From contig CABSCZ010000005.1 in assembly GCA_902476365.1 (NCBI GenBank), positions 7,009 through 71,008 of the forward strand: a DNA stretch of 64,000 nt, read 5' to 3'. This DNA comes from an uncultured Prevotella sp. (GTDB taxonomy: Bacteria > Bacteroidota > Bacteroidia > Bacteroidales > Bacteroidaceae). This document shows, piece by piece, positions 38,629-64,000 of this stretch. Under the pieces are notes generated by a model. It ran no database searches. It was not told the origin of the DNA and worked only from the letters and a program-made list of their open reading frames with translations. The first letter of the stretch is position 1. Each line of letters begins with the position of its first letter. A program made the translations under genes and the position numbers.

Positions 38629-39573
38629 ATGAAGATGGATAAGAAAATGAGATTCAGGATGTTGATATCCGTTGTTGCCCTCGCCATCATGGGTTTGGGC
38701 GCAGACATGCTAAAAGACCGTGAGGTGATCTTCCCGGAGGTGTCAGCACTTGCTGTCGGCTTATGGGTTGCCGACAAAAGAATATGGAATGTGCGTGGGT
38801 ATGAGATTCCCTTGCTGATGACCCTCTCGGCTGTGGAAGGAGTTATCCTTACGCGCTATGCTATGATCCCCCTATTTGTGCAGTTGACAGTTGCATTTGC
38901 CTTGTCGGCATTGTCGATGTCGCTGCTACGTATCCCCCTGATCCCCTCCATAGCAGCCATTCTCCTGCCCGTCCTCCTGCACACAGAGTCGTGGTACTAT
39001 CCGGCTTCTGTGGCATTGATGACAACGGTAATGGCCATAGGGACCAAACTCTTGCAATCCTTCGGGCTAAAGGAGCCGCTTACCCCTGTGTCAAGCAGGG
39101 AGGGACTGACAGTGAGCACAGCTAAGCAATGGATTGACCGCTATCTTCTCTTGCTGCCCTTGCTAGTCATCGCCACGTGGCATAGCTGGCTTTTCGCCAT
39201 TGTCCCCCCATTAGTCATCATCCTCATAGAGTTGTCCAACCCGAAGAACATGTTCAGATCGCGCCCCCTATCCTTATGGTTTACGACGATGGCCGTCGCC
39301 ATCATCGGGACCATATGCCGAATGCTGCTCTTAGAACGACTTTCCCTTCCGTATAGGGTGTCAGTCTCCACATCTTTCCTTGCAGCCTTTTGGGTGATGC
39401 AGCGGACAAGGATGATGTTCCCTCCCATACCTGCATTGGCAATTATCCCCTTTATTCTTCCTGATAGCTATCCTCTCTTCCCCCTTGAGGTGGCAGCAGG
39501 CTCGGCGTATGCCATTGCCGTACCATTATTGAAGGGTGCGGTGATGCGCAAGTTCTCCTGGAATAGGATCTGA
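38629..39573 (+). CDS. polytopic inner-membrane protein, hypothetical
   Basis: Multiple TM segments. The ORF is open from 38431, but a TACTTTTG -7 box at 38601-38608 suggests the start is the ATG at 38629 (MKMDKKMRFRMLISVVALAIMG). Confidence 0.45.
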   Translation: MKMDKKMRFRMLISVVALAIMGLGADMLKDREVIFPEVSALAVGLWVADKRIWNVRGYEIPLLMTLSAVEGVILTRYAMIPLFVQLTVAFALSALSMSLLRIPLIPSIAAILLPVLLHTESWYYPASVALMTTVMAIGTKLLQSFGLKEPLTPVSSREGLTVSTAKQWIDRYLLLLPLLVIATWHSWLFAIVPPLVIILIELSNPKNMFRSRPLSLWFTTMAVAIIGTICRMLLLERLSLPYRVSVSTSFLAAFWVMQRTRMMFPPIPALAIIPFILPDSYPLFPLEVAAGSAYAIAVPLLKGAVMRKFSWNRI

Positions 39574-39893
39574 GGCGAACTTGCATTTGGTCCTGTGCAA
39601 AGAAGAAGTTAAAGCAGCGGTGGAGGGCAACCTCCCAAGAATAGGACTGCGCCTGTAGCTTGGTGACGGGCAGCAGTGCTAAGAAGACTATCCCTGCCAT
39701 TGTTGGAATCTCTTCTTAGGCGATGCTAATCGTTTATGGGAATACTGACAATTTACCACATCTCCATGCAAAGATAGTTCATTCGAAGAACGACAAGAGG
39801 TTTGTCATTAAAAATGAAGGGCTCCTTGTGATATAATTTTCGCATTTTTGAAAATAATATGTCAACATGTATTGCTGTTTATCAAATTTATAA

Positions 39894-39901
39894 TATCTTT
39901 G
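39894..39901 (+). promoter_or_regulatory. candidate -7 box (TATCTTTG) for the ECF sigma gene
   Basis: TAnnTTTG match 23 nt upstream of the ATG at 39924. No well-spaced -33 TTTG was found. Confidence 0.25.
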
Positions 39902-39923
39902 CCATCGTTATACAATCATTTTA

Positions 39924-40505
39924 ATGAGTGATCAGAGTACATTGGCACAAAAGTTACATGAGGGAGATCTAAAATCTTTTCAAAGGATTTATGAAAACTA
40001 TTATGAAATTTTGTGCCGTTTCGCTTTTCGTTTCACTCAGGATCATGGTTCTGCGGAAGAAATTGTTGATGATGTCATGTTCAGTCTTTGGGATCATCAT
40101 GAGGATGTAGTGATCACGCAAATTAGGCCTTATCTTTTTCGTGCCGTTAGGAATCTCTGTATAAATCATTTGAAATCTGTTGCCGTAAGATTCTATTCTG
40201 CTAAGAATATTTCTATAGACGAAGATGAAAAATTCCTTAATAGCCTTTTCCAGAATGATGAGCACCCCCTTGGTATTCTTTTGGAAAAAGAATTAGAGAT
40301 ACATTTCCAACAGGCTATCCATGAGCTTCCAGCAGAATGTAGACGCGTATTCTTAATGAGTAGATCGGAATGTTTAACTTATGAGGAAATAGCGCAGGAA
40401 CTTGGTATTTCTGTCAATACGGTTAAATACCACATGAAAAATGCTTTGAGAATATTGTCTAAGGAAATGGGACGTTACCTTATTCTATTATTAGCATTGA
40501 TATAA
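39924..40505 (+). CDS. ECF-subfamily RNA polymerase sigma-70 factor (PUL regulator)
   Basis: Sigma-2 (EEIVDDVMFSLW) and sigma-4 HTH (LTYEEIAQELGISVNTVKYHM) are present. It is directly followed by a FecR anti-sigma gene and a SusC with an STN domain. Confidence 0.85.
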   Translation: MSDQSTLAQKLHEGDLKSFQRIYENYYEILCRFAFRFTQDHGSAEEIVDDVMFSLWDHHEDVVITQIRPYLFRAVRNLCINHLKSVAVRFYSAKNISIDEDEKFLNSLFQNDEHPLGILLEKELEIHFQQAIHELPAECRRVFLMSRSECLTYEEIAQELGISVNTVKYHMKNALRILSKEMGRYLILLLALI

Positions 40506-40576
40506 CTTTTTTTTCGTTTTGATAGAAAAAATAAACTGATTGACTACCCATCCTTTTTCTAAACTTGACTATAAGT

Positions 40577-41566
40577 ATGATGACAGGCAATTTTGACATA
40601 GACAAACTTGTCGGCTTTTATCTTGATGGTAGTATCAAGGAAGACGACTTTGAAACGTTGAAGCGATGGACTTCAGCTTCAGAGGAAAACAAATCATATG
40701 TAAGGAACATTATAGAAATGTATTTCTCGCTCATGGTGCAGTCGGATAAAACATATTATAATAAACTGGCTGCATTCAGACGTCTTGAGGATCATATTCA
40801 AGAGACTAAAGCCCAATCTCCTTTCAAATGGAAAATATTCGTTGCAACAATAGCAGCTACTATCCTTTTCTTACTTATACCTTTTACTTTGTATGACCAA
40901 CATCGTCAACATCAAATGAATGATGTTACCACATTAAAGGTTCCTGATGGATCTCAGTTGAGTTGTGTGCTCCCAGATGGGACAAAAATAACATTAAATT
41001 CGGGATCCGAGTTGAGCTATAGCCGTGGTTTCGGTATTGTAAACCGAGATATTAGAATGAAAGGAGAAGGCTATTTTGACGTCGTGCATAAGGAGGATAT
41101 CCCATTTACGATAAATTCTAACTACATGAAGATGACAGACCTTGGTACGAAATTTTATTTTCGTGATTATAGCAATGAGACTCGTATCCGTGTTCGACTT
41201 GTTGATGGTAAGGTTTCTGTGCACAATAATATGATTAAAACAGATGATGTTTTTTTAAATCCAGGTGAGATCTTGATTTTGGATAAGGCAACAGGTAAAA
41301 TAATAACTACAATAGCGAACAAAGTTGCTCAGCAACAAGATGACTTAAACTTGATAGAGTTTGATAATTTGCCTCTTGCGCAAATTGCGGAAATCCTTTC
41401 TCGCATGTATGGCGTGAAGTTAAGTATCGTTCCTACATCTCAAAACAAGAGATTCTATGGGAGTTTTAATAGGAAAACGGATACCTTCCAAGATGTGTTG
41501 GACAATCTCGTTTCTACCAAGCGTTTACATTATAAACGATTAAAAGGTCAATATCTACTCTATTAA
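40577..41566 (+). CDS. FecR-family anti-sigma factor
   Basis: The ORF-track start is TTG at 40565. ATG at 40577 (MMTGNF...). TM segment IFVATIAATILFLLIPF. The C-terminal region resembles a FecR/DUF4974 domain. Confidence 0.8.
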   Translation: MMTGNFDIDKLVGFYLDGSIKEDDFETLKRWTSASEENKSYVRNIIEMYFSLMVQSDKTYYNKLAAFRRLEDHIQETKAQSPFKWKIFVATIAATILFLLIPFTLYDQHRQHQMNDVTTLKVPDGSQLSCVLPDGTKITLNSGSELSYSRGFGIVNRDIRMKGEGYFDVVHKEDIPFTINSNYMKMTDLGTKFYFRDYSNETRIRVRLVDGKVSVHNNMIKTDDVFLNPGEILILDKATGKIITTIANKVAQQQDDLNLIEFDNLPLAQIAEILSRMYGVKLSIVPTSQNKRFYGSFNRKTDTFQDVLDNLVSTKRLHYKRLKGQYLLY

Positions 41567-41754
41567 TGACGTGATCATATCACCATATAATAAGTTTGTA
41601 TAATTCATTAAAAATTTAAAGTCATGGAAAGGAAAAAATTAACGCCAGTTTAGTTTGGCACACTATGGGTACGCAATGGGCACGAATATAATCTTGACTT
41701 GTCATTGCGTAGGATTTATTCACAAAAAAGATAATCTAAAAAAAATGAAAAGCT

Positions 41755-44700
41755 ATGAGTAGATTTAACAAGAAAGTCGCAATAGTGATGTCTTTGTGTC
41801 TTATGTGCAGTCTTGCTTCATTCGCCCAGCATATTACGCTCAATGCAAGCAACATCACCGTTAAACAAGCTATGAATAGATTACAAAGGGCTTCGGGATA
41901 TTCATTCGTTTTTTATAGTTCCGATGTGAACACCTCTAAAAAGGTGAGTATCAATGCAGAAAATGAACCTTTGGCGCAAGTAATAGACCAGATCTTAACC
42001 GGTCAGGACTTAACCTATCAGATTAAGGGAAAATCTATCGTTATCAGTAAAAAGGAGACTTCCCCCCAGTCTTCAACAGCGATAAATCGAAAGGAGAATA
42101 AAAGCTCAAAAGCGGTACAGGGTCGCGTTATCGATTCAAACGGCGATCCTATCATAGGGGCTTCTATAATCATTAAAGGAAGAAAGGCACAGGGTACAAT
42201 AACGGATGCAGAGGGCCATTTCATGCTAACAAATGTTCCGAATAATGGTTCTCTTGAAATCTCTTATGTAGGCTTCTCTACTGTTGAGATTCCGGTTCAT
42301 GGAAAGACCTCATTTGAAATTACCATGAAAGAAGATGCCAAGGAATTGGATGAAGTGGTAGCAATAGGTTATGGTACACAAAGGAAAATAACATTGACTG
42401 GCTCTACCGCCAGTACAACAGGCAAGGCTTTGGAAGCAAATTCTTCTGTTAACCTTTCACAAGGTCTTGCTGGCCGTCTCTCAGGTGTTATCATCAATAA
42501 CCGCTCTGGCGAGCCAGGTAAAGATGATGCAATAATGTACATTCGCGGTCGTAGTACTTTAGGGAATAATAATCCATTGATTATCATTGATGGTATTGCC
42601 GGTCGTGATGCGGAGTTCAGTCGTTTATCTCCTGATGAAATAGAAAGCGTTACTGTCTTGAAAGATGCATCCGCAGCAATTTATGGCTCACGTTCAGCAA
42701 ATGGAGTTATCCTTGTGACTACGAAGAGGGGTACGAATAGTGGCAAGCCGACTATTGACTTTACCTATGATTTGGGACTCCAGCAACCAACTCGTTTGCC
42801 TGATATGGCAGATGCCATTCAATACGCTAAAGCAGTAAATGCTTCTAATGCTATTGATGGGGAAGGTCCACGTTATACAGACGAGGACATCCAAAAATTT
42901 GCAGACGGGAGTGACCCTATTCTTTTTCCTAATACGGATTGGTATGACGAAGTGATTAAAAATTTGTCAATTCAGCATAAGTATGGAGTGACAGCGCGTG
43001 GTGGTACAAGCCGATTTAACTATTTTGCTTCTTTAAATGGGCAGTACCAGGATGGTATCTATCGCAAGAGTGCCACCAATTATAAGCAGTATAATATGCG
43101 CACTAACCTTGATTTTATGATCACAGACTGGTTGAAAATAGGTTTCGATATGTCCGCTCGAGAGCAGCATAAGAACTATTCTGCTTTCCCCAGTGATGAT
43201 TATGGAATTTTTTACGTTACTCAGCGTGCACTTCCTACAGGTGCCCCCTATTATCCTGATGGGCGACTCAGAGGTGGACTGAATCCTGCCATAATGGTAC
43301 AGTCAACCACTGGTTATGACAAGACCACCATTCATTCTCTGAATACAACATTAACAGGAAGCATTGATCTTAACAAATGGGTTAAAGGTCTTACTCTGAC
43401 AGGTCATCTTGCTTATGATAAAAATAATAGTTTTGGCAAGAACTGGAAAACTCCTTGGAATTATTGGACTTATGATGAGGTGTCAAAGACTTTCACAGAG
43501 CAAACTTCAACTTATTGGCCATCCGCCCAGTTGGATGAATCCTATGTAGGTTGGCATCGTTTAACTTTAAATGGTCAGATTAACTATGATCGCGTATTGT
43601 TTAATTCTCATCATGTCAACTTAATGTTTGGCGCAGAACAGAGTGAATACCATCTTGACAGATTCAGTGCTGGCAGATCGCACTTTGGGAGTGATGCTTT
43701 AGATCAGTTGTTCGCAGGTGATGCTGACCATACATACTGGAGCAATACAGGAAGTGCAAATGAAACTGCTCGCCGTTCATTCTTCGGTCGTGTAAACTAT
43801 GATTACCTGAGCAAATATCTCATCTCATTCATCTGCCGTTGGGATGGGTCTGAGAATTTCCCAAAAGGAAAACGATGGGGATTCTTCCCTGGGGTATCTG
43901 CAGGCTGGCGTATTAGTGAGGAAAAATTTGTAAAAGACAAATGGGGAAGTTGGTTGTCTAACCTAAAGTTACGAGCTTCTTATGGTGAACAGGGTAATGA
44001 TAATATTGATCCGTTCCAATATATGACTACGTACAGCTATTCCACCTCTTCTTGGTATAGAACAAATTATATTACTATGCTAAATGGTGCTGATGCCAAT
44101 ATTATCGTCCCAGGTGTGGTTGGTAATCCTGATGTTACGTGGGAAGTTGCCAAGACTTGGAATATAGGCCTTGATGGCGATATTCTCAATGGCTTGTTCA
44201 ATTGGGAAATAGAATTCTTCCATACATCTCGATCAAATATTCTTGTCACCCGTAATGCTTCTGTTCCTTCTTATACTGGTCTGACCTCCTTGCCTGACGA
44301 GAATATCGGTAAAGTTACCAATCATGGATTTGAATTGCAACTGGGTCATCAGAAGCGTATCAATAAGGATTTTCTTTATAGTATAAAAGCTAATTTCCTC
44401 TATGCAAAGAATAAAATTGTTTACATGGATGAAACTCCATGGGGTGATGGTCATGAGTATTTAAATGCTACGGGACATCCGATGGGATCCCATCTCTATT
44501 ATCATGTCATTGGAATTAATAAAACACAGGATGACCTGACAAAATATCCCCAGATCTCTGGTGCCACATTGGGAGAATTCATTTATGAAGATATCGATGG
44601 AGATGGAAAGATCACCTCTTACGACCGAAAACGTGATGACTTAACAGCAGTTCCTCAGATCGTCTTTGGTACCACTTTCAACGCTCAATGGAAAAACTTT

Positions 44701-45102
44701 GATATTACAATGCTGTTGCAAGGGCAGGCACGTGCACATTTCTATGATGCTCCTTTGATCGACTGGCGCTCAAGCAACATCTATGCAAAGGCTGCAAAGA
44801 AAGCTTGGACTCTGGATCGTCCTGATTCTAATTATCCACGTATTGGACAGAGACATGGCAGTGCAGACTATTGGGCTAAGAACGCATCTTTTATCCGTCT
44901 GAAAAATGTAGAAATAGGCTATACATTGCCGAAGACATGGCTGGCACCTATAGGCGTAACAGCATGCCGCATTTATGTTGCGGGTTATAATCTGCTCACC
45001 TTTAGCGGACTTAAGGATGTCGATCCAGAGAATAGTGATGAAGAAACTCAAACTTATCCTCAGACTCGTGTATATAATTTTGGTGTTAAAATAACTTTCT
45101 AA
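41755..45102 (+). CDS. SusC/RagA-family TonB-dependent transporter with N-terminal STN (trans-envelope signalling) extension
   Basis: 1115 aa with a signal peptide. The STN-like segment (ITVKQAMNRLQRASGYSFVF...VIDQILTGQDLTYQIKGKSIVISKK) precedes the carboxypeptidase-regulatory-like domain and plug. C-terminal ...FGVKITF. Confidence 0.9.
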   Translation: MSRFNKKVAIVMSLCLMCSLASFAQHITLNASNITVKQAMNRLQRASGYSFVFYSSDVNTSKKVSINAENEPLAQVIDQILTGQDLTYQIKGKSIVISKKETSPQSSTAINRKENKSSKAVQGRVIDSNGDPIIGASIIIKGRKAQGTITDAEGHFMLTNVPNNGSLEISYVGFSTVEIPVHGKTSFEITMKEDAKELDEVVAIGYGTQRKITLTGSTASTTGKALEANSSVNLSQGLAGRLSGVIINNRSGEPGKDDAIMYIRGRSTLGNNNPLIIIDGIAGRDAEFSRLSPDEIESVTVLKDASAAIYGSRSANGVILVTTKRGTNSGKPTIDFTYDLGLQQPTRLPDMADAIQYAKAVNASNAIDGEGPRYTDEDIQKFADGSDPILFPNTDWYDEVIKNLSIQHKYGVTARGGTSRFNYFASLNGQYQDGIYRKSATNYKQYNMRTNLDFMITDWLKIGFDMSAREQHKNYSAFPSDDYGIFYVTQRALPTGAPYYPDGRLRGGLNPAIMVQSTTGYDKTTIHSLNTTLTGSIDLNKWVKGLTLTGHLAYDKNNSFGKNWKTPWNYWTYDEVSKTFTEQTSTYWPSAQLDESYVGWHRLTLNGQINYDRVLFNSHHVNLMFGAEQSEYHLDRFSAGRSHFGSDALDQLFAGDADHTYWSNTGSANETARRSFFGRVNYDYLSKYLISFICRWDGSENFPKGKRWGFFPGVSAGWRISEEKFVKDKWGSWLSNLKLRASYGEQGNDNIDPFQYMTTYSYSTSSWYRTNYITMLNGADANIIVPGVVGNPDVTWEVAKTWNIGLDGDILNGLFNWEIEFFHTSRSNILVTRNASVPSYTGLTSLPDENIGKVTNHGFELQLGHQKRINKDFLYSIKANFLYAKNKIVYMDETPWGDGHEYLNATGHPMGSHLYYHVIGINKTQDDLTKYPQISGATLGEFIYEDIDGDGKITSYDRKRDDLTAVPQIVFGTTFNAQWKNFDITMLLQGQARAHFYDAPLIDWRSSNIYAKAAKKAWTLDRPDSNYPRIGQRHGSADYWAKNASFIRLKNVEIGYTLPKTWLAPIGVTACRIYVAGYNLLTFSGLKDVDPENSDEETQTYPQTRVYNFGVKITF

Positions 45103-45114
45103 AGAATTTGCCTT

Positions 45115-46935
45115 ATGAAAAGATATATTTTGCTATGTAGTGTCGTTGTTGCTTTCTTGTTCAGTGCGTGTTCTGATGAGTTCCTGGACAAGAAGCCGTT
45201 AACAACATTGTCAGAAGATGATGTGTTTTCAAATGCAGCTTTATTGGAAGATTATGTGAACAGTTTCTATACTGTTGTCCCTGATCCATTTACAGAAGGC
45301 AATATTGCAGCAATCACAGATGAGGCTTTCTTCCGTTATGGTGGTTCTTCAACTAATTTTGTTGAAAGAGGGCAGATGACCCCAGATAAAGTTATGTATG
45401 ACTACGAAGGCGGATATTCTCATAACAGTAGGACTACGTTCTTAAATATTTGGAACCGCGCTTATACCGGAATCCGAAACATGAATCATGTGCTGTCTCG
45501 TATTGATGATTGTACCTTCCTTACTGAAGAAAAGAAAAGGCAGCTAAAAGGGGAGACATATTTTTTCCGCGCATGGGCGTATGGGAATCTTGTTGAACGC
45601 TTTGGAGGTGTACCCTTAATAACTAAACTTTATCAAGTGCAGGATACCTTTGGCGTCAAGCGTAGTACAATTGATGAATGCACAGAGTTTATCCTAAATG
45701 ATCTTCATGCCGCAGAAAGTCTGTTAGTTGACAAATCTACAGAACTTGGACGTGTTAGTAAGGATGTTTGCTTAGCTTATGAGTCACGTTACACCCTGAT
45801 GGTTGCCAGGAAGTTCTTTAATGACCCAGATAACCCTTCCGATAATTTTGTACATGGGAGGTATGACAAGGCAAAATGGACCCGTGCCTTGAATGCTGCC
45901 AAGGCAATTGTAGAACGTGCCGATAAGGATGGCGCATATTCGTTAAGCACTTATGACGATTATTGGAAGAATGTAAATTGTCCGGAAGTAATTTGGGGAA
46001 AATTCTTCTCTACAACTGCAGGCGATAAAGCTCAATTATACTATTCTCCAACATATTTTAATGGTTGGACATCTTGTGAGCCATGCGAAGCTTTAATGTT
46101 AGACTATGAAATGGCAGCAACTGGCTTGAAGCCTTTTGAAGAAGGCTCAGGATATGACCCACATAAGCCGTGGATGGGTCGTGATCCCCGTTTCTATAAG
46201 ACGATCTTGTATTCTGATTGCATATTCCGTGATTCAGTTTTCGATAATCATTATTATATTGATCAAAATGGTAAACGTATTGCAAGAGGTTTATTTTGGA
46301 GAAACGAGAGCGACGATACTGGATATGGTCTCAGAAAATGGCATATAGAAAATGCAGATATCTCAGAGACAGAAAATACCACGATTATGTTTCCATGGAT
46401 CCGTCTTGCAGAAATGTACCTAAATTATGCAGAGGCAGCTTATGAATGTGGTGATGAAGTCACATGCCGTAAGTATTTGAACAAAGTTCGTTCACGATCT
46501 GATGTTCAGATGCCTCCTGTTACGGATACAGGAACCTCCTTGTTTGATAGAATTGTCAATGAACGAAGAGTGGAACTCGCATTTGAACCCTTCAGATATT
46601 TTGATCTACGTCAATGGAAACTGGCACCTTTTTATGAGAACATTCCTGCAATGGGTTGTGTCGTGATAGAATACCCCGACCATTCTCTACAATATCGTAT
46701 TGCCCAAGTAAAAGGAGCCGAAACTAAGGAAAATATTGGGACTAATTGGGTTTATCAGCCTGGATATACCTACGACTATTCGTATAGAGGGAAGACCTAT
46801 ACCATAGATTACGGCTATTGCCACAGTATGCAGGGGACTCAGAAAAAGTTTACCAATAAACAATATCTCTATCCTATTCCTCAAAATGAAATAACAAAGA
46901 GTGAGGGTAGTTTGGAGCAAAATCCTGATTATTAA
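45115..46935 (+). CDS. SusD/RagB-family nutrient-binding lipoprotein
   Basis: Lipoprotein signal MKRYILLCSVVVAFLFSACSD. Typical SusD-like length; begins 13 nt after SusC. Confidence 0.85.
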   Translation: MKRYILLCSVVVAFLFSACSDEFLDKKPLTTLSEDDVFSNAALLEDYVNSFYTVVPDPFTEGNIAAITDEAFFRYGGSSTNFVERGQMTPDKVMYDYEGGYSHNSRTTFLNIWNRAYTGIRNMNHVLSRIDDCTFLTEEKKRQLKGETYFFRAWAYGNLVERFGGVPLITKLYQVQDTFGVKRSTIDECTEFILNDLHAAESLLVDKSTELGRVSKDVCLAYESRYTLMVARKFFNDPDNPSDNFVHGRYDKAKWTRALNAAKAIVERADKDGAYSLSTYDDYWKNVNCPEVIWGKFFSTTAGDKAQLYYSPTYFNGWTSCEPCEALMLDYEMAATGLKPFEEGSGYDPHKPWMGRDPRFYKTILYSDCIFRDSVFDNHYYIDQNGKRIARGLFWRNESDDTGYGLRKWHIENADISETENTTIMFPWIRLAEMYLNYAEAAYECGDEVTCRKYLNKVRSRSDVQMPPVTDTGTSLFDRIVNERRVELAFEPFRYFDLRQWKLAPFYENIPAMGCVVIEYPDHSLQYRIAQVKGAETKENIGTNWVYQPGYTYDYSYRGKTYTIDYGYCHSMQGTQKKFTNKQYLYPIPQNEITKSEGSLEQNPDY

Positions 46936-47006
46936 GTTTCAATAGTGGGGATAGGTAGATTCTTTGCCTGTCCCCATGTATCCAACATCAATTCTATTAT
47001 AAGCAT

Positions 47007-48368: not shown

Positions 48369-48380
48369 AGTCAAATAATT

Positions 48381-50225: not shown

Positions 50226-50231
50226 AAAGAA

Positions 50232-52134: not shown

Positions 52135-52968
52135 ATGATGACATTAAGATTAACAGAACAACCTTCCAAGTATCGGCACTTGGAAAAAAAATCAGTAGAT
52201 GAACTGGTAACATTAATCAATCAAGAAGATCAAACTGTTCCTTTAGCTATTCAAAAGGTCCTTCCAGACCTTGCAAGGCTGATTGAAGCTATTGAAGAGA
52301 AACTAAAGAATGGGGGCAGAATGTTCTATTGCGGATGTGGAACTGGAGGACATTTAGCAGTTGATGATGTCCTGGAGTTACCAAACACTTATGGCATTGA
52401 TCCGGAAATGATACAATGCGTTCTTGCTGGGGGAGTAGAGAACTTGGTCCTTGATTTAGAAGAAAAGGAAGACGACACAGAAGAAGGATGGCAAACCTTG
52501 AAAAGTAAGCATATCTCCGAGCAGGATATAGTAGTTGGAATTTCGGCGAGTGGAACTACTCCGTATGTATTGGCCACACTCAAAAAATGCAAAGAAAATG
52601 GTATTACAACTGGATCGTTTGTCAATAATCCTGATGCCCCAATATCTAAATATAGCGACTATCCTGTAGAAGTCATTACAGGACCAGAGTTCGTCACAGG
52701 TAGCACCCGTATGAAAGCTGGGACTTCCCAGAAACTCATCTGTGACATGATCTCTACTACCTTGATGATCAGACTCGGTCGCGTGGAAGATAATATGATG
52801 GTCAATGCAAATTTGATTAATGACAAAGTAATTGATCGCTCTGTCAGGATGCTTATGGAGCGCAATCCAGAACTATCAGACTATGACTACTGTAAGAAAA
52901 TGATAGAGAAATGTGGCAGTGTAAAAAAGACTGAAGCATACTTGAAACAACAACAAATTATCAAATGA
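52135..52968 (+). CDS. murQ: MurQ-like SIS-domain sugar-phosphate etherase (second, divergent copy)
   Basis: It aligns with the first copy at 11069..11884 ([29 protein letters not shown]). The glycine-rich motif differs: [24 protein letters not shown] versus [24 protein letters not shown]. Confidence 0.7.
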   Translation: [277 protein letters not shown]

Positions 52969-53813: not shown

Positions 53814-53829
53814 TAAAAAATGCTAAGAA

Positions 53830-56255: not shown

Positions 56256-57682
56256 GACATAATTCTTTGAATGACAATTTTCGATCATATATACTTGTTG
56301 CATTTCTAATCTTATCATTTACAATGCAAGGGCAGACATTAAAAGGAGGTATTTCCTTTAAGATGTTGCGACAAATAGAGAATGCCCAGCCCAAAAGCCC
56401 TACACTGAAGGGTCTTCAGCATTCAATGGCATCCAACAATATTGACAGCCTTGCCCTAAACGCTTCTCGTTTGGAGCAAACAAATCCCCATTTTATGTAT
56501 GAAACCGTAAAACAGAATATCCAAAATCAATATGAGAGTGGACGCTGCTGGTGCTTTACTGGACTAAATGTGCTCAGGGGCGCTTTTGCCAAAGCACACC
56601 AGGATACAATGACCGTAGAATATTCTCGTGCTTACTTGTACTTTTATGACCAATTGGAAAAGTCCAACTTGATGCTTCAAGGTTGCATCGATACCGCCTA
56701 TAAACCAATGGATGATACTCGTGTTACATTCTTTTTTAAGAAGCCTCTTCATGATGGCGGTACATTCTGTGGCATCATTGACTTGATTCGCAAATATGGT
56801 CTTGTTCCTGCCTCTGCACAGCAAGAAACCTATCAAGCAAATCACAATAAAAAGATCACGCAGCTATTAAATAGGAAATTACGGATGTTTGGACTCGAAT
56901 TACGCAGGATGGTCCATGAAGGGCAAACAGAAACATCCATCACTAAGCGAAAGACAGAGATGTTAGGAATAGTCTACAATATGCTTTCTTTAGCTGTAGG
57001 AACTCCTGTGAAGCATTTCAAATATGCCTTTAAAAATGCACAAGGCCAACCGGTAACACAGGAAAGAGAATATACTCCTATGACGTTTTATAAGGCGACC
57101 ATAGGAGAGTTGAATTATGATGATTACATTATGGTAATGAATGATCCTCGGCGACCATATTACAAGACCTACAAGGTTCTATATGCACGCCATCTCTATG
57201 ATGGACATGACTGGAAATATCTTAACCTCCCAATGAAAGACATTGAAACTATAGCCGTTGCAAGTATCAAAGATGGTATAAAGATGTATAGTTCTTATGA
57301 TTCCGAGAAACAACGTAATAACAGTACTGCTTATTGTGATTTAGACAATTATAATTACGACAGTCTTTTCGGAACTTCCTTCCAGATGAGCAAGGCTGAT
57401 CGTATCTCTACCTATGATAGTGGCTCAACCCATGCTATGGCATTGACTGCTGTTGACCTCGATGCACAGGAGAACCCTATAAGATGGAAAGCAGAAAACA
57501 CCTTTGGCCCTGGCTTCGGCGTCAATGGAGGATATGTTATTATGAGTAACCGATGGTTTGAAGCATATATGTTTCGTTTGGTAGCCTTGAAAAAATATGC
57601 CCCAACATCCTTAGTAAAGGCATACGAGCAAGAACCTACTGGGGTCTATCCTGAAGATCCATTGTTTGGGGAAGATCGATGA
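56252..57682 (+). CDS. pepC: aminopeptidase C / bleomycin hydrolase (peptidase C1B), secreted
   Basis: Active-site motif QNQYESGRCWCFTGLN. ATG at 56252 gives a signal (MRHNSLNDNFRSYILVAFLILSFTMQGQ). It overlaps the upstream stop by 4 nt. Confidence 0.8.
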   Translation: MRHNSLNDNFRSYILVAFLILSFTMQGQTLKGGISFKMLRQIENAQPKSPTLKGLQHSMASNNIDSLALNASRLEQTNPHFMYETVKQNIQNQYESGRCWCFTGLNVLRGAFAKAHQDTMTVEYSRAYLYFYDQLEKSNLMLQGCIDTAYKPMDDTRVTFFFKKPLHDGGTFCGIIDLIRKYGLVPASAQQETYQANHNKKITQLLNRKLRMFGLELRRMVHEGQTETSITKRKTEMLGIVYNMLSLAVGTPVKHFKYAFKNAQGQPVTQEREYTPMTFYKATIGELNYDDYIMVMNDPRRPYYKTYKVLYARHLYDGHDWKYLNLPMKDIETIAVASIKDGIKMYSSYDSEKQRNNSTAYCDLDNYNYDSLFGTSFQMSKADRISTYDSGSTHAMALTAVDLDAQENPIRWKAENTFGPGFGVNGGYVIMSNRWFEAYMFRLVALKKYAPTSLVKAYEQEPTGVYPEDPLFGEDR

Positions 57683-57793
57683 AGGATAATGGCGTGTACA
57701 TCACAGGCTATGATGATTGGCTTGAGACCGGTGAAAAACTTATTGTCGCGGTAGCAGAATCCAATCTGGATTTGTACATGAGATTTTTTATCC

Positions 57794-58294
57794 TATAGGT
57801 TGACAGGTTGTCAAATCCCAGTGTTTATCGGGCTTGCAACCTGATTTTAGGTTGTCAAAGGTTGACACGAGGTTGACAGAAAAAGCACATCTTCCGCTAA
57901 ATTCTCGAGAGAATTTATTGGACCACTTATGCTTTTGCTTTGCAATACATCCACGATTGGATAAAATTCTCTCGAGAATTTTGCATGATAGCTTTACATT
58001 TTATATACTGATCATGATATGGATTGACATGGAACGTTTTCGTTCAGCCAAATGAGCAGAGCCAAGCTTGGGACTCTACCATGGCGAGAAAATGTGCGCG
58101 AAAGCGAGCAACTGAAAATGCGGTGCATGTATCGCTCCGTGAGACGCAAAGGGCATGAATGAAGGAGGAGCATACAGCCCCATAGATGCTATGCCGTGGA
58201 AGAAAATGACGAGTGAAGTTGGCAACCTCGTGGCAACCTTTGACAACCTAAAATCAGGTTGCAAGCCCGATAAACGCTGGGATTTGACAACCTG
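57794..58294. mobile_element. MITE-like element / possible invertible segment: ~335 bp core flanked by ~84 bp near-perfect terminal inverted repeats
   Basis: The left inverted repeat is 57794-57877. The right inverted repeat is 58213-58294; its reverse complement matches the left at about 80 of 84 positions. Both repeats contain nested GGTTGTCAAA / GGTTGACA subrepeats and an internal palindrome (GGTTGTCAAATCCC...GGGCTTGCAACC). The core also has a palindromic pair AAATTCTCGAGAGAATTT / AAATTCTCTCGAGAATTT. Confidence 0.6.
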
Positions 58295-58426
58295 CCAACC
58301 TATTTACAAAAAAATCACTATGGACTATAAAATTGTCCAAGAAAAGAAACCTACATGGAAGATCTTTGGTTAGAAAAAAGCACCTACAATTTGCGTTTTC
58401 CACCTACTCGATTAAACAATACGAAA

Positions 58427-58456
58427 AAGAGGATGCATCAGGATTTTGACGCATCC
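58427..58456 (-). terminator. rho-independent terminator downstream of the sulfatase operon
   Basis: Stem GAGGATGC/GCATCCTC extends to ~11 bp with one mismatch. Loop GGATTT. The - strand T-run is CTCTTTTTCG. The stem sequence is the same as in the 5563..5598 terminator. Confidence 0.5.
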
Positions 58457-58483
58457 TCATTGTCAGCTAAGAAATAATCTTTT

Positions 58484-59966
58484 CTATTTGGACAATTCGA
58501 GCATAGGGACATCTCTCATCAGTTGTTTTTGTAAACGTGCTGCAACATTCGGATAAGAAATCACCATATTATGCAATTCAGATGGATCCGTGCTAAGGTC
58601 ATAAAGTTCTGGTCCCATCCTCCCTTGATGTGGGATAAATTTCCAAAAACCTGACCTCACTGCTATCTTACCACCATTATTCTGCGTGAGGACATAATCG
58701 CGATATAAAGGCGCATTTTCTTTCAAAAACAAAGCTGAGCCATCGCGACTATCTTGGCATTCCTCTTCTGTGATCGGTAAGTCCAAAAGCCTTGCTAATG
58801 TCGCTAACATGTCAATATAACAATAGTTCTGCCGCTGTATAAAATGACGTTGTATACATTTTGGCCATGAGACGATGAATGGCATTCGCGTTCCGCCTTC
58901 ATATAAAGAGTACTTCTCTCCATGTAAGCCTCCATAAGGGTCATGATGGTTAATATGTTCAAGAGCCCCATCCTCATAACCTTCCTTAACCATAGGACCA
59001 TTATCACTTGTGACTATAATAAGAGTGTTATCTAATATACCTTGTTCCTTCAAAGCTTTGACTATTTCCCCTACACAATAGTCAAATTCTTCTATAACAT
59101 CCCCATAGATACCAGCTTTTGATTTTCCACGGAAACATTTTGATGGCACTCGAGGTTCGTGTGCATTATTTGTAGCATAGTAAAGAAAAAAAGGAGAATG
59201 CACATGCTGACAAATATATTTTTTAGCTTTATCAAGTAAGGCCTCTGACATTTTTTCATCTTTCCAGAAAGCACTTATGCCACCATCTTGCCACCCTATA
59301 CGACTAATTCCATTAACAATAGTAGCATCATGTCCCAAATGAGGTTTAATCTTCAAAAGATCCGGTCTACAACGCCCCGTGGGCATATCGCCTATCTTAT
59401 GGCGGTAGGATACCAAGAGAGAGTCACCTTTTCTAAGTCGATCTACATGTGTGTTTTCTATAAAGACACAAGGAACACGATCATTCGTTGCTGGAAAATA
59501 ATAAGCATAACTAAATCCTATAGATAAAGGACCAGTGCCTATATATCCATTAAAATCTACAGGTCTTTCTTTTGTACCTAATCCCAAATGCCATTTGCCT
59601 ACAATAGCAGTGATATCCATTTCGTTTCATCAGAGAAGGCAAAGTAATTTTGGCAGTATCAATGCATAATGGCGCATCTGCAGGTAGTATTCCAACTTGC
59701 TTGCGCCAAGCATATTCACCAGTAAGCAAAGCATAGCGCGATGGAGACGAGGTAGAAGCTGGCGCATAGCAATTCGTGAAGCGAACCCCATGAGAAGCAA
59801 TAGAATCTATTGACGGCGTATTAATAAGATGTGCACCATAACAGCCGAGATCACCATATCCAATGTCATCGCCCAAAATAATAATAACATTGGGATGTTT
59901 ATAATTGTGAGCTGTAACTGTCTGCCTATTAGCATGGAAAATAGATATGAGGCAGTTAATATTTGA
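58484..59966 (-). pseudogene. S1-family sulfatase, disrupted (internal frameshift, no start codon or signal peptide)
   Basis: The C-terminal 378 aa ORF (58484..59620) and the N-terminal fragment (59550..59876, carrying Ser-type CYAPASTSSPSRYALLTG) overlap in different frames. Upstream in frame the mature N-terminus KHPNVIIILGDDIGYGDL is reached, then a stop at 59967-59969 with no Met or signal peptide. Confidence 0.6.
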
Positions 59967-60054
59967 TTATAATGATCCATAGTATAATCTTTATATGACT
60001 TCGTTCTTAATAATGTTGAAAAAATAATTATTTACGATCTCAGAAGAAACTTCC

Positions 60055-61593
60055 TTACCTATTGTCTACCCTATTTTTAGCAATCTTCCTCAATTGTGCT
60101 TGCAATTGGAAAAGTATGTCTGGATACTTGGTCGCCACATTGTCGTTTTCATGGACATCTTTGTCAACTCTATAGAGTTGTGGCTCGGAAGCATAGCCAG
60201 TTTCCACATTTTCTTCTTTCATCAGTTTTACTTTAGTATCACTGGGCTCAATATATTTCCATCCTTTATTTCTTATAGAGAGAGTATGGTCAAGGGCTTG
60301 TTCCACGATCCAAGAGCGATCAGTTTGTACCTGATTCGTCCAAGTCTCCCATGAATCCCAACTATCAGGGGCAGCGCCTTTCGGAACTCTGGCATTGAGC
60401 ATTTTTGCCATAGATGAGAAGAAGTCTATCTGAGACACAAGTGCTCCAGATTCACTGCCAGCCTTCACTTGTTTGGGCCAACGCACGATGAATGGAACGC
60501 GCGTCCCACCCTCAAAGGCACTATATTTGTTGCCACGTAGTGGACCTGCAGGGCTATGACCATTTAGGAGTTCATTAGCCTGATCCTTATAACCATCATT
60601 GACGACAGGACCATTATCACTTGTCAAAATCACAAGAGTATTATCCTCTATCCTCAATCTTTTGAGCGTTTTCATAATCTCACCCACAGTCCAATCGAAC
60701 TGCACAATAGCATCCCCACGAACGCCCATGTTTGTCTTTCCGCGGAAACGTGCATTGGGGAAGCGTGGCACATGGATATCATTAGTAGCTACGTACATGA
60801 AGAAGGGTTCGCGCCGATGTTCTTGGATGAACCTTACCGCATGGGAGATAATAGAATCAGCAATGTTTTCATCTTTCCATAAGGCTTTTCCGCCACCTTT
60901 CATATAACCAATGCGACCAATACCATTCACGATAGCCATATTGTGACCAAAATCCCACATTTGGTTATAGCATAGCTCTGGATTAGACTTTCCCGTGGGT
61001 TCTCCCGGAAAAGGATGGGAATAACTCACTTCTATAGGGGCGTTAGGATCCCAATTGGCTACTCGTCCATTTTCAATAAACACACAAGGAACCCGATCGC
61101 CAGTTGCAGCCATAATATAGGAATAATCGAAGCCTAAATCCCCCAAGCCACAAGGAAGTGGAGCATTCCAGTCTTGCTCCCCGGTCTTGTCACCTAAGCC
61201 AAGATGCCATTTTCCAAAAGCACCTGTGGCATATCCTTCATTTTTGAAGAGATCAGCAATTGTGTATTGTTCTGGTCGAATAATCATTCCTGCATCTCCT
61301 CTCGCTATGTCGGTGCCCTTGCGCCTCCATGAATATTCTCCAGTAAGGAGAGAATATCGTGAAGGCGTGCTCGTTGCCGCAACAGCAAAGGCATTCGTAA
61401 AACGACATCCTTCAGCAGCAAGTCGATTTACATTTGGCGTTTGAACGTTCTTGGCACCATAACATTCCAGGTCACCATATCCCAGGTCGTCTGCATAAAT
61501 GAAGATGACATTCGGACGTTGCTGGGCATAAGCCTCCATCCCGTGAAAAGCAAACACAGTAAGGGCAAATAGACTTATTGGATTCTTATTCAT
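60055..61593 (-). CDS. S1-family sulfatase (Ser-type active site), secreted
   Basis: Signal peptide present. Motifs PNVIFIYADDLGYGDL and sulfatase signature ATSTPSRYSLLTG (S-x-P-x-R) are present. C-terminal sulfatase domain present. Confidence 0.85.
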   Translation of the reverse strand: MNKNPISLFALTVFAFHGMEAYAQQRPNVIFIYADDLGYGDLECYGAKNVQTPNVNRLAAEGCRFTNAFAVAATSTPSRYSLLTGEYSWRRKGTDIARGDAGMIIRPEQYTIADLFKNEGYATGAFGKWHLGLGDKTGEQDWNAPLPCGLGDLGFDYSYIMAATGDRVPCVFIENGRVANWDPNAPIEVSYSHPFPGEPTGKSNPELCYNQMWDFGHNMAIVNGIGRIGYMKGGGKALWKDENIADSIISHAVRFIQEHRREPFFMYVATNDIHVPRFPNARFRGKTNMGVRGDAIVQFDWTVGEIMKTLKRLRIEDNTLVILTSDNGPVVNDGYKDQANELLNGHSPAGPLRGNKYSAFEGGTRVPFIVRWPKQVKAGSESGALVSQIDFFSSMAKMLNARVPKGAAPDSWDSWETWTNQVQTDRSWIVEQALDHTLSIRNKGWKYIEPSDTKVKLMKEENVETGYASEPQLYRVDKDVHENDNVATKYPDILFQLQAQLRKIAKNRVDNR

Positions 61594-61599
61594 ATTCTT

Positions 61600-63267
61600 T
61601 TATTTTAAATTAGGATTAATGTCTTGCTCGCTTTGTGGAATAGGCCAGATAGAAGGACCTGCTGCGAAGTTCCTTGTTCCAACATACCAACGGTTTACAC
61701 CCATAGGATCTGTTTTCCCATTCGATTGGTTGCGTCGTGTCGTTGCATCAGAGTTCGGGAAAGAAGCACCCCAGACATCTCCTGTGAGTTTATCCTTGGC
61801 AATATTCCAACGGAGTAAATCCCATAGCCGAATACCTTCCAATGCCAGCTCTACACGTCTTTCGTTCCTCAATAAAGGTCTCAATTCTTCCGTATTCGTG
61901 GTGGTGATATCCGGCATGTTTGAGCGGCGCCGTACCATATTTAAATATTGTAGATCGGAAGCTGTCAGCGTCCCTGCCTCCATCTTGGCCTCGACATAAC
62001 TAAGCAAGACCTCTGCATAGCGTATAATGGGCAATTTTGCTGGATACTTATTATTATCCCCTCCATTATAAATGTAGTTTTCATCGATGTATTTCCTCAT
62101 CATATATCCAGTCTTCGTGCTTTGGTAAGATGGGTGCAACCCGTCCTTGCCATTGCCTGCGTTATGATCCGGGTCACAATTATAAATGCCTTGTCCAAAA
62201 GCACATCCATTCCAATAAATCGTCTCTGCAAGCCTAGGGTCACGGTTCTTAGCCAAATCATTTGGATCATATTTCGGATCATTGTAACTAAATGTAGAAC
62301 CATCAGAAAATTGATAAGCTTCAAACAAATCTGCCGTAACATTATGCAAGCACCAACCTCCTAACGCGCCATCCATTGTCGGATTGAATTGTTTCAGCAT
62401 TCCAGAACCACATTTGTCGTCATCATACTGCATGATAAAAAGGTTCTCACTAAGTGCATTTGCCGTAGACGGCTGGAAAAGGGCCTTATAGTCTGGGCTT
62501 AATTCACTGTCTCCCAAGTCAATGATACTCTTATAGGTAATAGCTGCATCAGCCCATTGGCGTAGGAGAAGCTGTAACCTTCCTTTGAAAGTCAATGCAG
62601 CTTGCTTTGTGGCCCGTCCATAATTACCTTCAGCTGCTACTTCCGACCATTTCGGTAATGCTGCGGCAGCCTCAGAGAATTCATTCATTGCCCACTTTGC
62701 GACTTCATCTCGTGGCGTTTTTGATACAGAGTTAGCCTCATCCTTAGTCATCGTATGTTCGACTAAAGGAACATCATGAAAAAAGGAACATAAATAAAAG
62801 TATTGTGTAGCACGAAGGAAACGGGCTTCCGCCTCATACCTTTTCATATTCGTCTCAGAAATACCTACGGCATTTTTGAGTTTTTCCAGGAAGTCATTAC
62901 AACGGGCGATCTTTTGATAGGACAAACTCCAATACGTAGAAGTTGCGCCACTCCTTGCTGCGCTAAGATTACCTGACGCAATGATGCCAATATTACTGTT
63001 CAGTCCTCGCCTGTCCCAACCGTTATCGGAACATATATCGAGCATCAGGAGTCCTTGATAACTCCACCAATCAGATGGCGAATATTCTTCACTGCCGAAA
63101 ACAATATTAGCATGATAAAGCCCTGTTAATGCAAGCATGGCATTTTGGTCGCTTTTCATAAAACCATCAGTTGCATACGATGTAAGTGGCGACCTATCCA
63201 AATCGCATGATGTAAAGACACACAAGATGCACAGGATGATATATACAAATTTATTAAATCTTTTCAT
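61600..63267 (-). CDS. SusD/RagB-family nutrient-binding lipoprotein
   Basis: Lipoprotein signal MKRFNKFVYIILCILCVFTSCD. 555 aa. Confidence 0.85.
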   Translation of the reverse strand: MKRFNKFVYIILCILCVFTSCDLDRSPLTSYATDGFMKSDQNAMLALTGLYHANIVFGSEEYSPSDWWSYQGLLMLDICSDNGWDRRGLNSNIGIIASGNLSAARSGATSTYWSLSYQKIARCNDFLEKLKNAVGISETNMKRYEAEARFLRATQYFYLCSFFHDVPLVEHTMTKDEANSVSKTPRDEVAKWAMNEFSEAAAALPKWSEVAAEGNYGRATKQAALTFKGRLQLLLRQWADAAITYKSIIDLGDSELSPDYKALFQPSTANALSENLFIMQYDDDKCGSGMLKQFNPTMDGALGGWCLHNVTADLFEAYQFSDGSTFSYNDPKYDPNDLAKNRDPRLAETIYWNGCAFGQGIYNCDPDHNAGNGKDGLHPSYQSTKTGYMMRKYIDENYIYNGGDNNKYPAKLPIIRYAEVLLSYVEAKMEAGTLTASDLQYLNMVRRRSNMPDITTTNTEELRPLLRNERRVELALEGIRLWDLLRWNIAKDKLTGDVWGASFPNSDATTRRNQSNGKTDPMGVNRWYVGTRNFAAGPSIWPIPQSEQDINPNLK

Positions 63268-63277
63268 CTTCTTCGAA

Positions 63278-64000
63278 TTAAAAATTAATATTCAAACCGA
63301 ACGTATAAGTCTTGAGAATAGGATAATAGCTCCCACTCGTATCAATTTCAGGATCCCAACCTTCTGGGAAATGATGGAACGTAAGAGGATTTTCGCACTG
63401 GACATAGCACCTAATATTGTTTACTCCCAATACCTTAACTGCATTCTTAGGGATAGTATATCCTAATTGTACGGATTTGATTCGGCAATACGAAGCATTT
63501 CTTACCCAGAAATCAGACAACAAGGTATTATTGGATCCACCAATTCCACTATTGGGTATAACCTCCAATCTTGGATACTTCGGGTATCTTTCGGGATTAT
63601 CCGCCTTGAAATATCCTTCTGCCTGCCATTTTTGTATGGACCCATAGCCAGTAAAAGCCCAACCAGCATAACCACTTAACATACCTTTTACTCCTGCAAC
63701 TCCTTGTATTTGGCCTGAGAAATCAAAGCCTTTATAATTACATCCCATAGTGATTCCATACGTATACTTAGGTATGCGGGAACCCAAAACAACACGATCA
63801 TCTGATGTAACCTTCCCATCTCCATTGATATCCACGTATCTAATATCACCTACTTTTGAATCAGGGGCAATAGACGATTGGTCATACCAACTTTTCTTGT
63901 CCTCTTCATTAATGAAAACGCCATCCGTTTTATAGCCATAATAAATATTCATGGGATAGCCAACAAAGTAAGTTCCATTACCTACGAGTCCATTATTTTG
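63278..64000 (-). CDS. SusC/RagA-family TonB-dependent transporter, C-terminal part (5' end beyond window)
   Basis: The frame is open to the window edge. C-terminal barrel strands end ...TYTFGLNINF. Stop TAA at 63278-63280. Confidence 0.8.
   Translation of the reverse strand, partial: QNNGLVGNGTYFVGYPMNIYYGYKTDGVFINEEDKKSWYDQSSIAPDSKVGDIRYVDINGDGKVTSDDRVVLGSRIPKYTYGITMGCNYKGFDFSGQIQGVAGVKGMLSGYAGWAFTGYGSIQKWQAEGYFKADNPERYPKYPRLEVIPNSGIGGSNNTLLSDFWVRNASYCRIKSVQLGYTIPKNAVKVLGVNNIRCYVQCENPLTFHHFPEGWDPEIDTSGSYYPILKTYTFGLNINF

Follow-up and report, generated by a model that had tools for sequence, protein, structure and literature searches.

In gut Bacteroidales, polysaccharide utilization loci (PULs) for seaweed glycans are carried on integrative conjugative elements (ICEs), and PULs that combine an extracytoplasmic function (ECF) sigma/anti-sigma pair with an STN domain-containing SusC, an arrangement for trans-envelope signaling, are typical of the host-glycan loci of Bacteroides thetaiotaomicron. 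In the 64,000-nt stretch of DNA from an uncultured Prevotella sp. analyzed here (the window; part of contig CABSCZ010000005.1, assembly GCA_902476365.1), the GC content drops abruptly near 39.7 kb, and the AT-rich tract that begins there carries two loci of the latter kind, which we term PUL1 and the sulfatase PUL. That Bacteroidales species exchange PULs is established (PMC10942478), and a murT-murK-murQ operon serves the uptake and catabolism of N-acetylmuramic acid (MurNAc) in Tannerella forsythia (PMC5790795). We place the probability at about 0.65 that the tract consists of two accessory PUL modules derived from a lower-GC gene pool and situated between dnaG and etfB of this uncultured gut Prevotella, a stretch that is variable and prone to recombination. 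Compared with described systems, it is an ordinary horizontally exchanged island, a phenomenon well known in Bacteroidota.

As in the horizontally exchanged PULs of gut Bacteroidales, we see SusC/SusD-based accessory loci of atypical composition and patchy distribution that have undergone interspecies exchange; unlike these, the tract yielded neither integrase, relaxase, or conjugation genes nor a tRNA target or flanking repeats in the regions scanned (see below), the exchange looks like allele replacement by homologous recombination inside a chromosomal hotspot, and the two modules were juxtaposed secondarily. With classical genomic islands it shares GC steps that are sharp at both ends, a location between genes that neighbor each other in relatives, and accessory metabolic cargo, but it is composite, has no mobility hallmarks, and has a junction conserved with a sister species, which indicates no recent strain-level gain. 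Both modules have the STN-bearing SusC and cognate sigma/FecR pair of the B. thetaiotaomicron-type ECF PULs, with the difference that, in the window, 28 kb of inserted DNA lie between the SusC of the sulfatase PUL and the pair belonging to it. As in the T. forsythia operon, the MurQ of PUL1, which scores above the NCBIfam cutoff, stands beside a BadF-type kinase and a major facilitator superfamily (MFS) transporter, and a second such trio occurs in the GC-rich block to the left. PUL1 appears to differ from that operon in that its predicted transporter is of the gluP/NagP type and not of the MurT type, its kinase match is weak, and its trio lies inside a SusC/SusD/GH20 locus.

Compositional limits of the tract

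In 1-kb sliding windows, GC content is ~0.46 to 0.57 left of 39.5 kb and 0.36 to 0.46 from there to the end of the window. The fall itself, from values of ~0.50 to 0.56 down to values of 0.36 to 0.42, takes place between 39.5 and 40.0 kb. The best single change-point by maximum likelihood is position 39,698, which divides the window into parts with GC contents of 0.508 and 0.398; its log-likelihood ratio of 366 was reached by none of 500 shuffles of 2-kb blocks, the maximum among which was 173. The change-point is intergenic and falls in the 350-bp gap between the stop of an HPP-like membrane-protein gene (39,573) and the start of an ECF sigma gene (39,924). GC content at third codon positions (GC3) averages 0.625 per gene on the left (0.48 to 0.75, 29 genes) versus 0.353 on the right (0.30 to 0.40, 16 genes), without overlap of the two ranges (Mann-Whitney p = 4e-8), and GC content at second positions is nearly flat across the step (0.379 left versus 0.371 right). 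Composition and codon usage thus deviate from those of the surrounding chromosome in the manner of a classical genomic island. An earlier note on this DNA, made from its letters alone, had placed a sharp break near 39.7 kb from hand counts of 50 to 63% versus 38 to 40% GC; these counts prove to be about right, and the break is borne out both by the sliding-window step at 39 to 40 kb and by the full separation in GC3. Its further claim that proteins beyond the break are enriched in K, N, I, and Y holds for N (1.38-fold), Y (1.35-fold), and I (1.15-fold) and barely for K (1.09-fold). Among matched pairs of paralogs, an AT-driven residue shift is seen in MurK, MurQ, the MFS transporter, FecR, SusC, and GH20, and the opposite shift is seen in SusD and the ECF sigma factor.

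The right end of the tract was read from a contig (L012) that overlaps the right end of the window at 99.9% identity. Segmentation of the extended sequence into three parts gave positions 1 to 39,698 (GC, 0.508), 39,699 to 66,980 (GC, 0.398), and 66,981 to 73,267 (GC, 0.516), so that the AT-rich tract measures 27.3 kb and a second GC step lies ~3 kb beyond the end of the window, just past SusC2. Past this step, GC is ~0.52 in etfB, etfA, and the genes for an acyl-CoA dehydrogenase (ACAD), MutY, and an MscS channel. Since GC returns to host-like values on the far side, the tract is a bounded island and not the edge of another replicon. Its two halves are alike in GC (0.39 to 0.41).

The DNA left of the step combines housekeeping genes, such as relA/spoT, alaS, and dnaG, with a SusC/SusD pair of its own and a trio of MurQ, a kinase, and an AmpG-like transporter (GC3, 0.62 to 0.73 overall; 0.63 to 0.64 for SusC/SusD and 0.62 to 0.69 for MurQ/MurK). 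Because this second set of SusC/SusD and MurQ/MurK genes is host-like in composition, gene function alone cannot account for the AT-richness of the tract. The MurQ and kinase of the tract are 49% and 40% identical to the left copies, respectively, and the two sets are therefore not recent duplicates.

A very abrupt step that falls in an intergenic gap, in material that is wholly metagenomic, could in principle result from the joining, at 39.7 kb, of contigs of two organisms. Exact-protein look-ups recovered contigs of at least five independent gut-metagenome assemblies, which differ in human-gut sample and assembler, that span the junction at 98.4 to 100% identity to the window over 2 to 20 kb, and one of these contigs comes from a strain that is 1 to 2% divergent on either side. 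These contigs rule out a chimera at the junction, and with host-like sequence again on the far side of the tract, in the expected core neighborhood, the probability of such an artifact is negligible.

Distribution in relatives

A scan of GTDB species representatives with SusC1 retrieved the uncultured Prevotella sp. RUG143 (99% identity), which is the sister species, then the isolate Prevotella sp. KH2C16 (69%), and no others. The named members of the 90%-identity clusters of SusC1, SusD2, SusC2, the C45 peptidase, and the MFS transporter are all "Prevotella sp." metagenome-assembled genomes (MAGs). The dnaG-etfB neighborhood was surveyed in 80 metagenomic contigs with an etfB 88 to 94% identical to that of the window species. 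The dnaG gene lies 0.15 to 7.5 kb upstream of etfB in 19 of them, as against ~37 kb of intervening DNA in the window species, and the usual order in these 19 is mostly RecD-DUF3822-RsmD-PLD-(rSAM-TPR)-DnaG-EtfB-EtfA-ACAD. PUL1 and the sulfatase PUL are upstream of etfB in none of the 80 related Prevotella contigs, and we found the AT-rich modules only in the window species and the one sister species. Such sporadic distribution, with absence from the same site in relatives, is characteristic of genomic islands and favors acquisition on the comparison of close relatives that had been proposed for this DNA.

Among 5.8 billion proteins, we found no relatives between ~99% and 72% (SusC1) or 71% (SusC2) amino acid identity. 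Of the nearest relatives of PUL1, the one match with a name is Prevotella sp. KH2C16, and named Dysgonomonas/Dysgonomonadaceae and Bacteroides matches are ~51 to 61% identical. In two contigs with SusC1 at 69 to 70% identity (L027 and L030), the whole syntenic cassette is AT-shifted (GC3, 0.33 to 0.54 versus 0.62 to 0.73 in the flanks); the drop starts at the sigma gene, and the DNA on either side of the cassette is unrelated to its flanks in the window. Similarly, SusC/SusD have a GC3 of 0.23 to 0.26 in a contig with SusC2 at 71% identity (L125), the flanks of which are mostly at 0.52 to 0.67. In a further contig (L123; 62% identity), the GC3 of the cassette matches that of its flanks, and KH2C16 (69%) has no step in per-kilobase GC. 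Overall, cassette GC is 0.39 to 0.46 in the window species, the sister species, L027, L030, and KH2C16 (flanks, ~0.46 to 0.57) and ~0.52 in L123. Such values would be expected if the cassette changed hosts more quickly than its composition ameliorated, and a lagging composition of old resident loci, weighed below, would also produce them in some lineages.

Two modules joined by rearrangement

Comparison with sister-species contigs (L020, L032, L115, and L117 to L122) gives a different arrangement. The order there is MscS, MutY, ACAD, EtfA, and EtfB, then SusC2, SusD2, and sulfatase-2, and then sigma, anti-sigma, GDSL lipase, and DnaG. From DnaG it continues through TPR, PTPS, rSAM, PLD, NlpC, epimerase, and an outer membrane protein (OMP) to PUL1 (sigma, anti-sigma, and SusC1 through C45 and PepC), which is followed by a remnant of the left-hand SusC and by PAP2, GT2, MFS, MurK, MurQ, RsmD, DUF3822, and RecD. 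The two PULs thus lie ~15 kb apart in the sister, with different junctions, and between them are the sigma/anti-sigma pair, the GDSL lipase, and the dnaG-to-OMP genes, mostly core genes. The homology of PUL1 with the sister extends from ~39,785 to 57,685, ending 3 nt past the PepC stop, and the DNA that follows in the window (57,686 to 60,039), with an inverted-repeat element and sulfatase-1, has no counterpart at that place in the sister. Alignment of the window with the sister is continuous across the SusC2/etfB junction, and PUL1 has OMP, epimerase, and NlpC as its neighbors in both species. BLAST against L020 and L032 showed that positions 31,965 to 34,980 of the window, 86.7% identical, abut PUL1 directly in the sister, where the esterase/HPP segment (34,980 to 39,784) has no counterpart between OMP and PUL1.

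In the sister, the sulfatase PUL ends with sulfatase-2, and a sigma/anti-sigma pair (L117, 16,994 to 18,760) follows 0.5 kb downstream; this pair is 82% identical at the nucleotide level to a pair in the window at 30,065 to 31,831. Because its ortholog stands beside sulfatase-2 in the sister, this window pair is the regulator of the sulfatase PUL; in the window, 28 kb (31,832 to 60,039) split it from its module. The pair forms an islet of lower GC (0.44; GC3, 0.48), visible in the profile and per-gene GC3 only, binary segmentation having missed it. On the basis of this map, the AT-rich tract is two modules (39,785 to 57,685 and 60,040 to ~66,950; Table 1) joined by a lineage-specific rearrangement, and the layout of the window is best explained if the NlpC-to-PUL1 segment was inverted and translocated to a place between the sulfatase PUL and its regulators. 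Given the shared SusC2/etfB junction and OMP/PUL1 neighbors, the modules predate the split of the two species or introgressed together with their junctions.

Table 1. Positions of the AT-rich modules and of associated features (window coordinates)
Feature	Position	Strand	Details and basis
dnaG (primase)	27,974-29,983	-	Zn_ribbon_DnaG/DNAG_N/Toprim (Pfam); left anchor of ancestral dnaG-etfB neighborhood
Detached sulfatase-PUL regulators	30,065-31,831	-	FecR anti-sigma, 30,153-31,163; ECF sigma, 31,217-31,795; Pfam
GC-rich DNA travelling with PUL1	31,832-39,784	.	NlpC/P60, L-Ala-D/L-Glu-type epimerase, OMP; two esterases, HPP-like membrane protein; Pfam
HPP-like membrane-protein gene	38,431-39,573		Pfam
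Left compositional boundary	39,574-39,923	.	GC change-point 39,698; homology to sister island from ~39,785, 135 bp upstream of sigma gene
PUL1 module	39,785-57,685	+	17.9 kb; GC, 0.39; GC3, 0.31-0.38; Pfam, NCBIfam, sister-species homology
ECF sigma (PUL1)	39,924-40,505	+	
FecR anti-sigma (PUL1)	40,565-41,566	+	
SusC1 (PUL1)	41,755-45,102	+	STN domain
SusD1 (PUL1)	45,115-46,935	+	
Ceramidase-like (PUL1)	47,007-48,368	+	
GH20 hexosaminidase (PUL1)	48,381-50,225	+	
GH20 hexosaminidase, second (PUL1)	50,232-52,052	+	
MurNAc-6-P etherase, MurQ (PUL1)	52,135-52,968	+	
BadF-type sugar kinase (PUL1)	52,965-53,813	+	
gluP/NagP-type MFS transporter (PUL1)	53,830-55,050	+	
C45 peptidase (PUL1)	55,047-56,255	+	
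Aminopeptidase C-like, PepC (PUL1)	56,234-57,682	+	C1 peptidase
Inverted-repeat element	57,782-58,316	.	535 bp; 97-nt arms, 91% complementary; 341-nt core
Sulfatase-1, apparent frameshifted pseudogene	58,484-59,980	-	C-terminal open reading frame (ORF), 58,484-59,620; overlapping N-terminal fragment ORF, 59,550-59,876
Sulfatase PUL module	60,040-64,000, on to ~66,950 outside window	-	Pfam; L012 continuation; GC step
Sulfatase-2 (sulfatase PUL)	60,055-61,593	-	
SusD2 (sulfatase PUL)	61,600-63,267	-	
SusC2 (sulfatase PUL)	63,278 to ~66,607	-	STN domain

The earlier note had taken the DNA beyond the break to be a single block of ~24 kb or more, with both PULs and the inverted-repeat element, acquired from a lower-GC Bacteroidales donor. 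In its full form, this would be a single event from a non-Prevotella donor, for example by way of an integrative element that ends outside the window. The uniformly low GC of the 27.3-kb tract, its two sharp ends, and the likeness of its halves in GC and in synonymous divergence from the sister all agree with such an origin. The sister-species map does not: it has ~15 kb between the PULs and neither the inverted-repeat element nor sulfatase-1, and the sulfatase PUL has its regulators outside the tract. Moreover, the right end of the tract adjoins etfB, etfA, ACAD, and MutY directly, with no integrase or tRNA, and the nearest named PUL1 relative is from a Prevotella isolate, with Dysgonomonadaceae and Bacteroides far behind. 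We therefore regard a single block as very improbable, and the map already largely refutes it. What stands of the proposed horizontal acquisition is DNA of foreign composition, located between genes that are close together in 19 of the 80 relatives and confined to two species; the single block does not stand, and 5.8 billion proteins yielded no lower-GC Bacteroidales donor.

Divergence and exchange of alleles

Divergence at synonymous sites (dS; Nei-Gojobori) between the window species and the sister species was compared along the locus. In the deep core genes (TPR, rSAM, PLD, DnaG, NlpC, epimerase, EtfA/B, ACAD, MutY, and MscS), dS is 0.57 to 1.20, with dnaG at 1.20, and the detached regulators are core-like (0.64 to 1.23). 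The values are 0.28 to 0.43 in the sulfatase PUL, 0.25 to 0.52 in PUL1 from SusD1 to PepC, and 0.03 to 0.07 in the sigma, anti-sigma, and SusC1 genes of PUL1. The GC3 of core genes has shifted by 0.10 to 0.17 between the two species (0.54 to 0.75 versus 0.42 to 0.64), and that of the island is identical. In a three-way comparison over SusC1, the window differs from the sister by 0.4 to 2% and from a conspecific strain (L003) by 3 to 9%, with the reverse relationship in the rest of PUL1. Between this strain and the window, mean divergence is 2.2%, patchily distributed, in the island and 1.0% in the flank. In both modules, these patterns look like signatures of mosaic cross-species allele replacement by homologous recombination.

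Origin of the tract

On the basis of these observations, we infer that this lineage acquired the modules by horizontal transfer. The likeliest donor is a different Prevotellaceae lineage of lower GC, which is more plausible than a different Bacteroidales family, and entry would have been through recombination or on an element that has since been stripped of its mobility genes. Gene order and divergence show that both modules already existed in the lineage common to the window species and the sister species, in which they lie apart. In the window species, the NlpC-to-PUL1 segment was translocated, bringing the modules side by side, with the inverted-repeat element and the sulfatase pseudogene at the joint, and alleles inside the modules have since been exchanged over the species boundary by homologous recombination. 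The AT-richness would have been kept because the effective age of the modules in the genome is short relative to amelioration.

Several observations weigh against this reading. The SusC2/etfB junction and the OMP/PUL1 neighborhood are common to both species, and the acquisition is therefore not recent. The identity of the outgroup SusC proteins (69 to 72%) is within the divergence of Prevotella core proteins at this locus (DnaG, 53 to 65%; PLD, 62 to 72%), so that long vertical residence in the genus is possible. Neither the GTDB representative scan nor the 5.8 billion proteins yielded a donor, and the contexts of the nearest outgroups are not uniformly low-GC genomes. The tetranucleotide z-score correlation of the island with the core (r, 0.37 to 0.69) is only weakly separated from that of core segments with each other (0.60 to 0.74), these correlations being noisy and poorly discriminating on segments of 6 to 12 kb; the weak contrast, obtained with a check that had been suggested for this DNA, agrees with a donor from within Prevotellaceae or Bacteroidales and speaks against a distant phylum. 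The GC3 background of this genome also rests on ~73 kb.

To these are added the marks of mobility, none of which was found. ARAGORN detected no tRNA or tmRNA in the window or in L012, L020, and L021; a Pfam scan of every window ORF of ≥150 aa revealed neither an integrase nor a transposase; there are no relaxase, coupling protein, tra, or integrase genes between 39.7 and 66.98 kb or in the 6 kb beyond, as an ICE would have; and the module ends have no flanking direct repeats beyond one 14-nt match. The tRNA/tmRNA site and the mobility genes or direct repeats of a classical genomic island are thus both lacking, and the integrase or tRNA boundaries for which a search had been proposed are absent from the right end of the tract and from the scans of the window and L012. 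Finally, the GC-rich RecD-to-PAP2 genes (8,558 to 16,425) have dS values of 0.15 to 0.53 and the same GC3 in both species, so that interspecies recombination is a trait of the whole neighborhood and not of the AT-rich DNA alone. The argument that the island is closer than the core and hence recently transferred is weakened by these equally low values.

The main surviving rival, to which we give a low probability, is a compositional lag: the PULs would be old accessory loci of Prevotella without a recent foreign origin, and codon-usage selection or GC-biased gene conversion would have driven the core to higher GC3 but not these rarely expressed, rarely recombining loci. Such a lag would explain why core GC3 has shifted between the sisters and PUL GC3 has not, and it would accommodate an AT shift of the same cassette relative to its flanks in at least four hosts, detached regulators with core-like dS and intermediate GC3 (0.48), module junctions common to the sister species, and an outgroup identity (~70%) on par with core-protein divergence in the genus. 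It is opposed by the fully GC-rich second PUL and second MurQ/MurK set in the same window, by the lack of a cassette/flank GC contrast in L123 and KH2C16, and by the abruptness of the steps, which include intergenic DNA; it also leaves unexplained the synonymous divergence (pS/dS) 2 to 25 times below that of the deep core and the cross-species mosaic in SusC1. We accordingly prefer acquisition of two modules from a lower-GC gene pool.

If so, the tract shows how a gut Prevotella gains and reshuffles its capacity for glycan foraging, with PULs of foreign composition in a hotspot between core genes. These PULs have recombined with those of a sister species from other hosts, and rearrangement can part a PUL from its own regulators. 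For genome scanning, one clean GC step may conceal a composite history, and greater similarity than the core is no proof of island transfer where the whole neighborhood is a recombination mosaic.

The RecD-to-PAP2 segment looks GC-rich inside the sister genome, the deep core of which has a GC3 of ~0.42 to 0.64. This suggests a possible introgression in the opposite compositional direction.

Predicted functions of the modules

A SusC/SusD pair with degradative enzymes, the hallmark of PULs, occurs twice in the tract, SusC1/SusD1 with two GH20 hexosaminidases and SusC2/SusD2 with sulfatases. PUL regulation is represented in PUL1 by the sigma/anti-sigma pair (39,924 to 41,566) and the STN domain of SusC1, and SusC2 likewise has an STN domain. 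Both MurQ proteins are well above the cutoff of NCBIfam model NF003915 (307 bits for the island copy and 359 bits for the left copy; cutoff, 168). Both kinases match BadF/BcrA weakly, below the Pfam cutoff (27.4 and 26.0 bits versus 31.5). The MFS transporter of the island is gluP/NagP-like, and the left-hand one is AmpG-like, below the cutoff.

In both species, PUL1 adjoins an NlpC/P60 endopeptidase and an L-Ala-D/L-Glu-type epimerase (window positions 31,960 to 34,191). Together with these neighbors, the cargo of PUL1 suggests that the locus serves to harvest glycans derived from peptidoglycan or related amino-sugar glycans. A second catabolic set of the MurNAc/N-acetylglucosamine (GlcNAc) type behind a SusC/SusD gate hints at scavenging of cell walls or amino sugars. 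A full-text literature search found nothing that joins a polysaccharide utilization locus with peptidoglycan, MurQ, and SusC. A bolder combination of ideas, which we hold to be doubtful, is that sigma/anti-sigma PUL cassettes form an integrase-less, persistently AT-rich "floating" pool that moves among Prevotella (hosts, 46 to 57% GC) purely by homologous recombination at hotspots and that the 18-kb module is an undescribed outer membrane system for harvesting peptidoglycan/MurNAc/GlcNAc glycans that travels with the NlpC/P60 and epimerase genes.

Inverted-repeat element, sulfatase-1, and minor repeats

The inverted-repeat element, in which GGTTGACA/GGTTGTCA repeats abound, lies exactly at the joint of the two PUL modules, and its right arm is where short-read contigs break off. 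We considered a multicopy miniature inverted-repeat transposable element (MITE) and rejected it, as only one copy is present among all fetched loci; the element could have been left behind by the rearrangement as a MITE-like relic, or it could be a segment able to invert. In the adjacent sulfatase-1, which is 40% identical to sulfatase-2, the Pfam Sulfatase match starts at profile position 94. The gene is apparently a frameshifted pseudogene. Its 378-aa C-terminal ORF is called alike in several independent assemblies, so that a sequencing error is not the cause.

The 14-nt direct repeat mentioned above, CATGCAAAGATAGT, occurs at 31,789 to 31,802 and at 39,766 to 39,779 without extended homology and was rejected as a flanking repeat, being a promoter box-like motif. 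The copy at 31.8 kb is the reverse complement of the TAnnTTTG -7 promoter box (the Bacteroidetes box) ahead of the ECF sigma gene. The copy at 39.77 kb is an identical box in leftward orientation that has no gene to serve and may be the relic of a promoter. The window has no match to Rfam families. In one sister MAG (L115, 17,663 to 19,130), the sigma and anti-sigma genes of the sulfatase PUL are set apart by a 150-aa ORF and a transposase gene of the ISL3 family; these are the sole mobile-element genes met anywhere in the neighborhood.

Flanking GC-rich genes

The two adjacent esterase genes left of the step share an internal segment (35,272 to 35,651 and 36,587 to 36,966; EstA Ig-like domain) that is ~67% identical at the nucleotide level, which indicates that the pair arose by an old tandem duplication. 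Farther left, positions 11,069 to 23,722 (MurQ, kinase, AmpG-like MFS, GT2, PAP2, GDPD, DUF218, SusD, and SusC; GC, 0.53) are an insertion relative to the RsmD-PLD adjacency of many relatives. The sister is without window positions 16,425 to 23,505 and has kept a 95-aa remnant of SusC. The longest ORF of the left MurQ gene (11,069 to 12,049, minus strand) encodes 326 aa, begins with TTG, and overlaps the upstream kinase gene by 154 nt. Its true start is probably near 11,884, the sister ortholog being 271 aa long.

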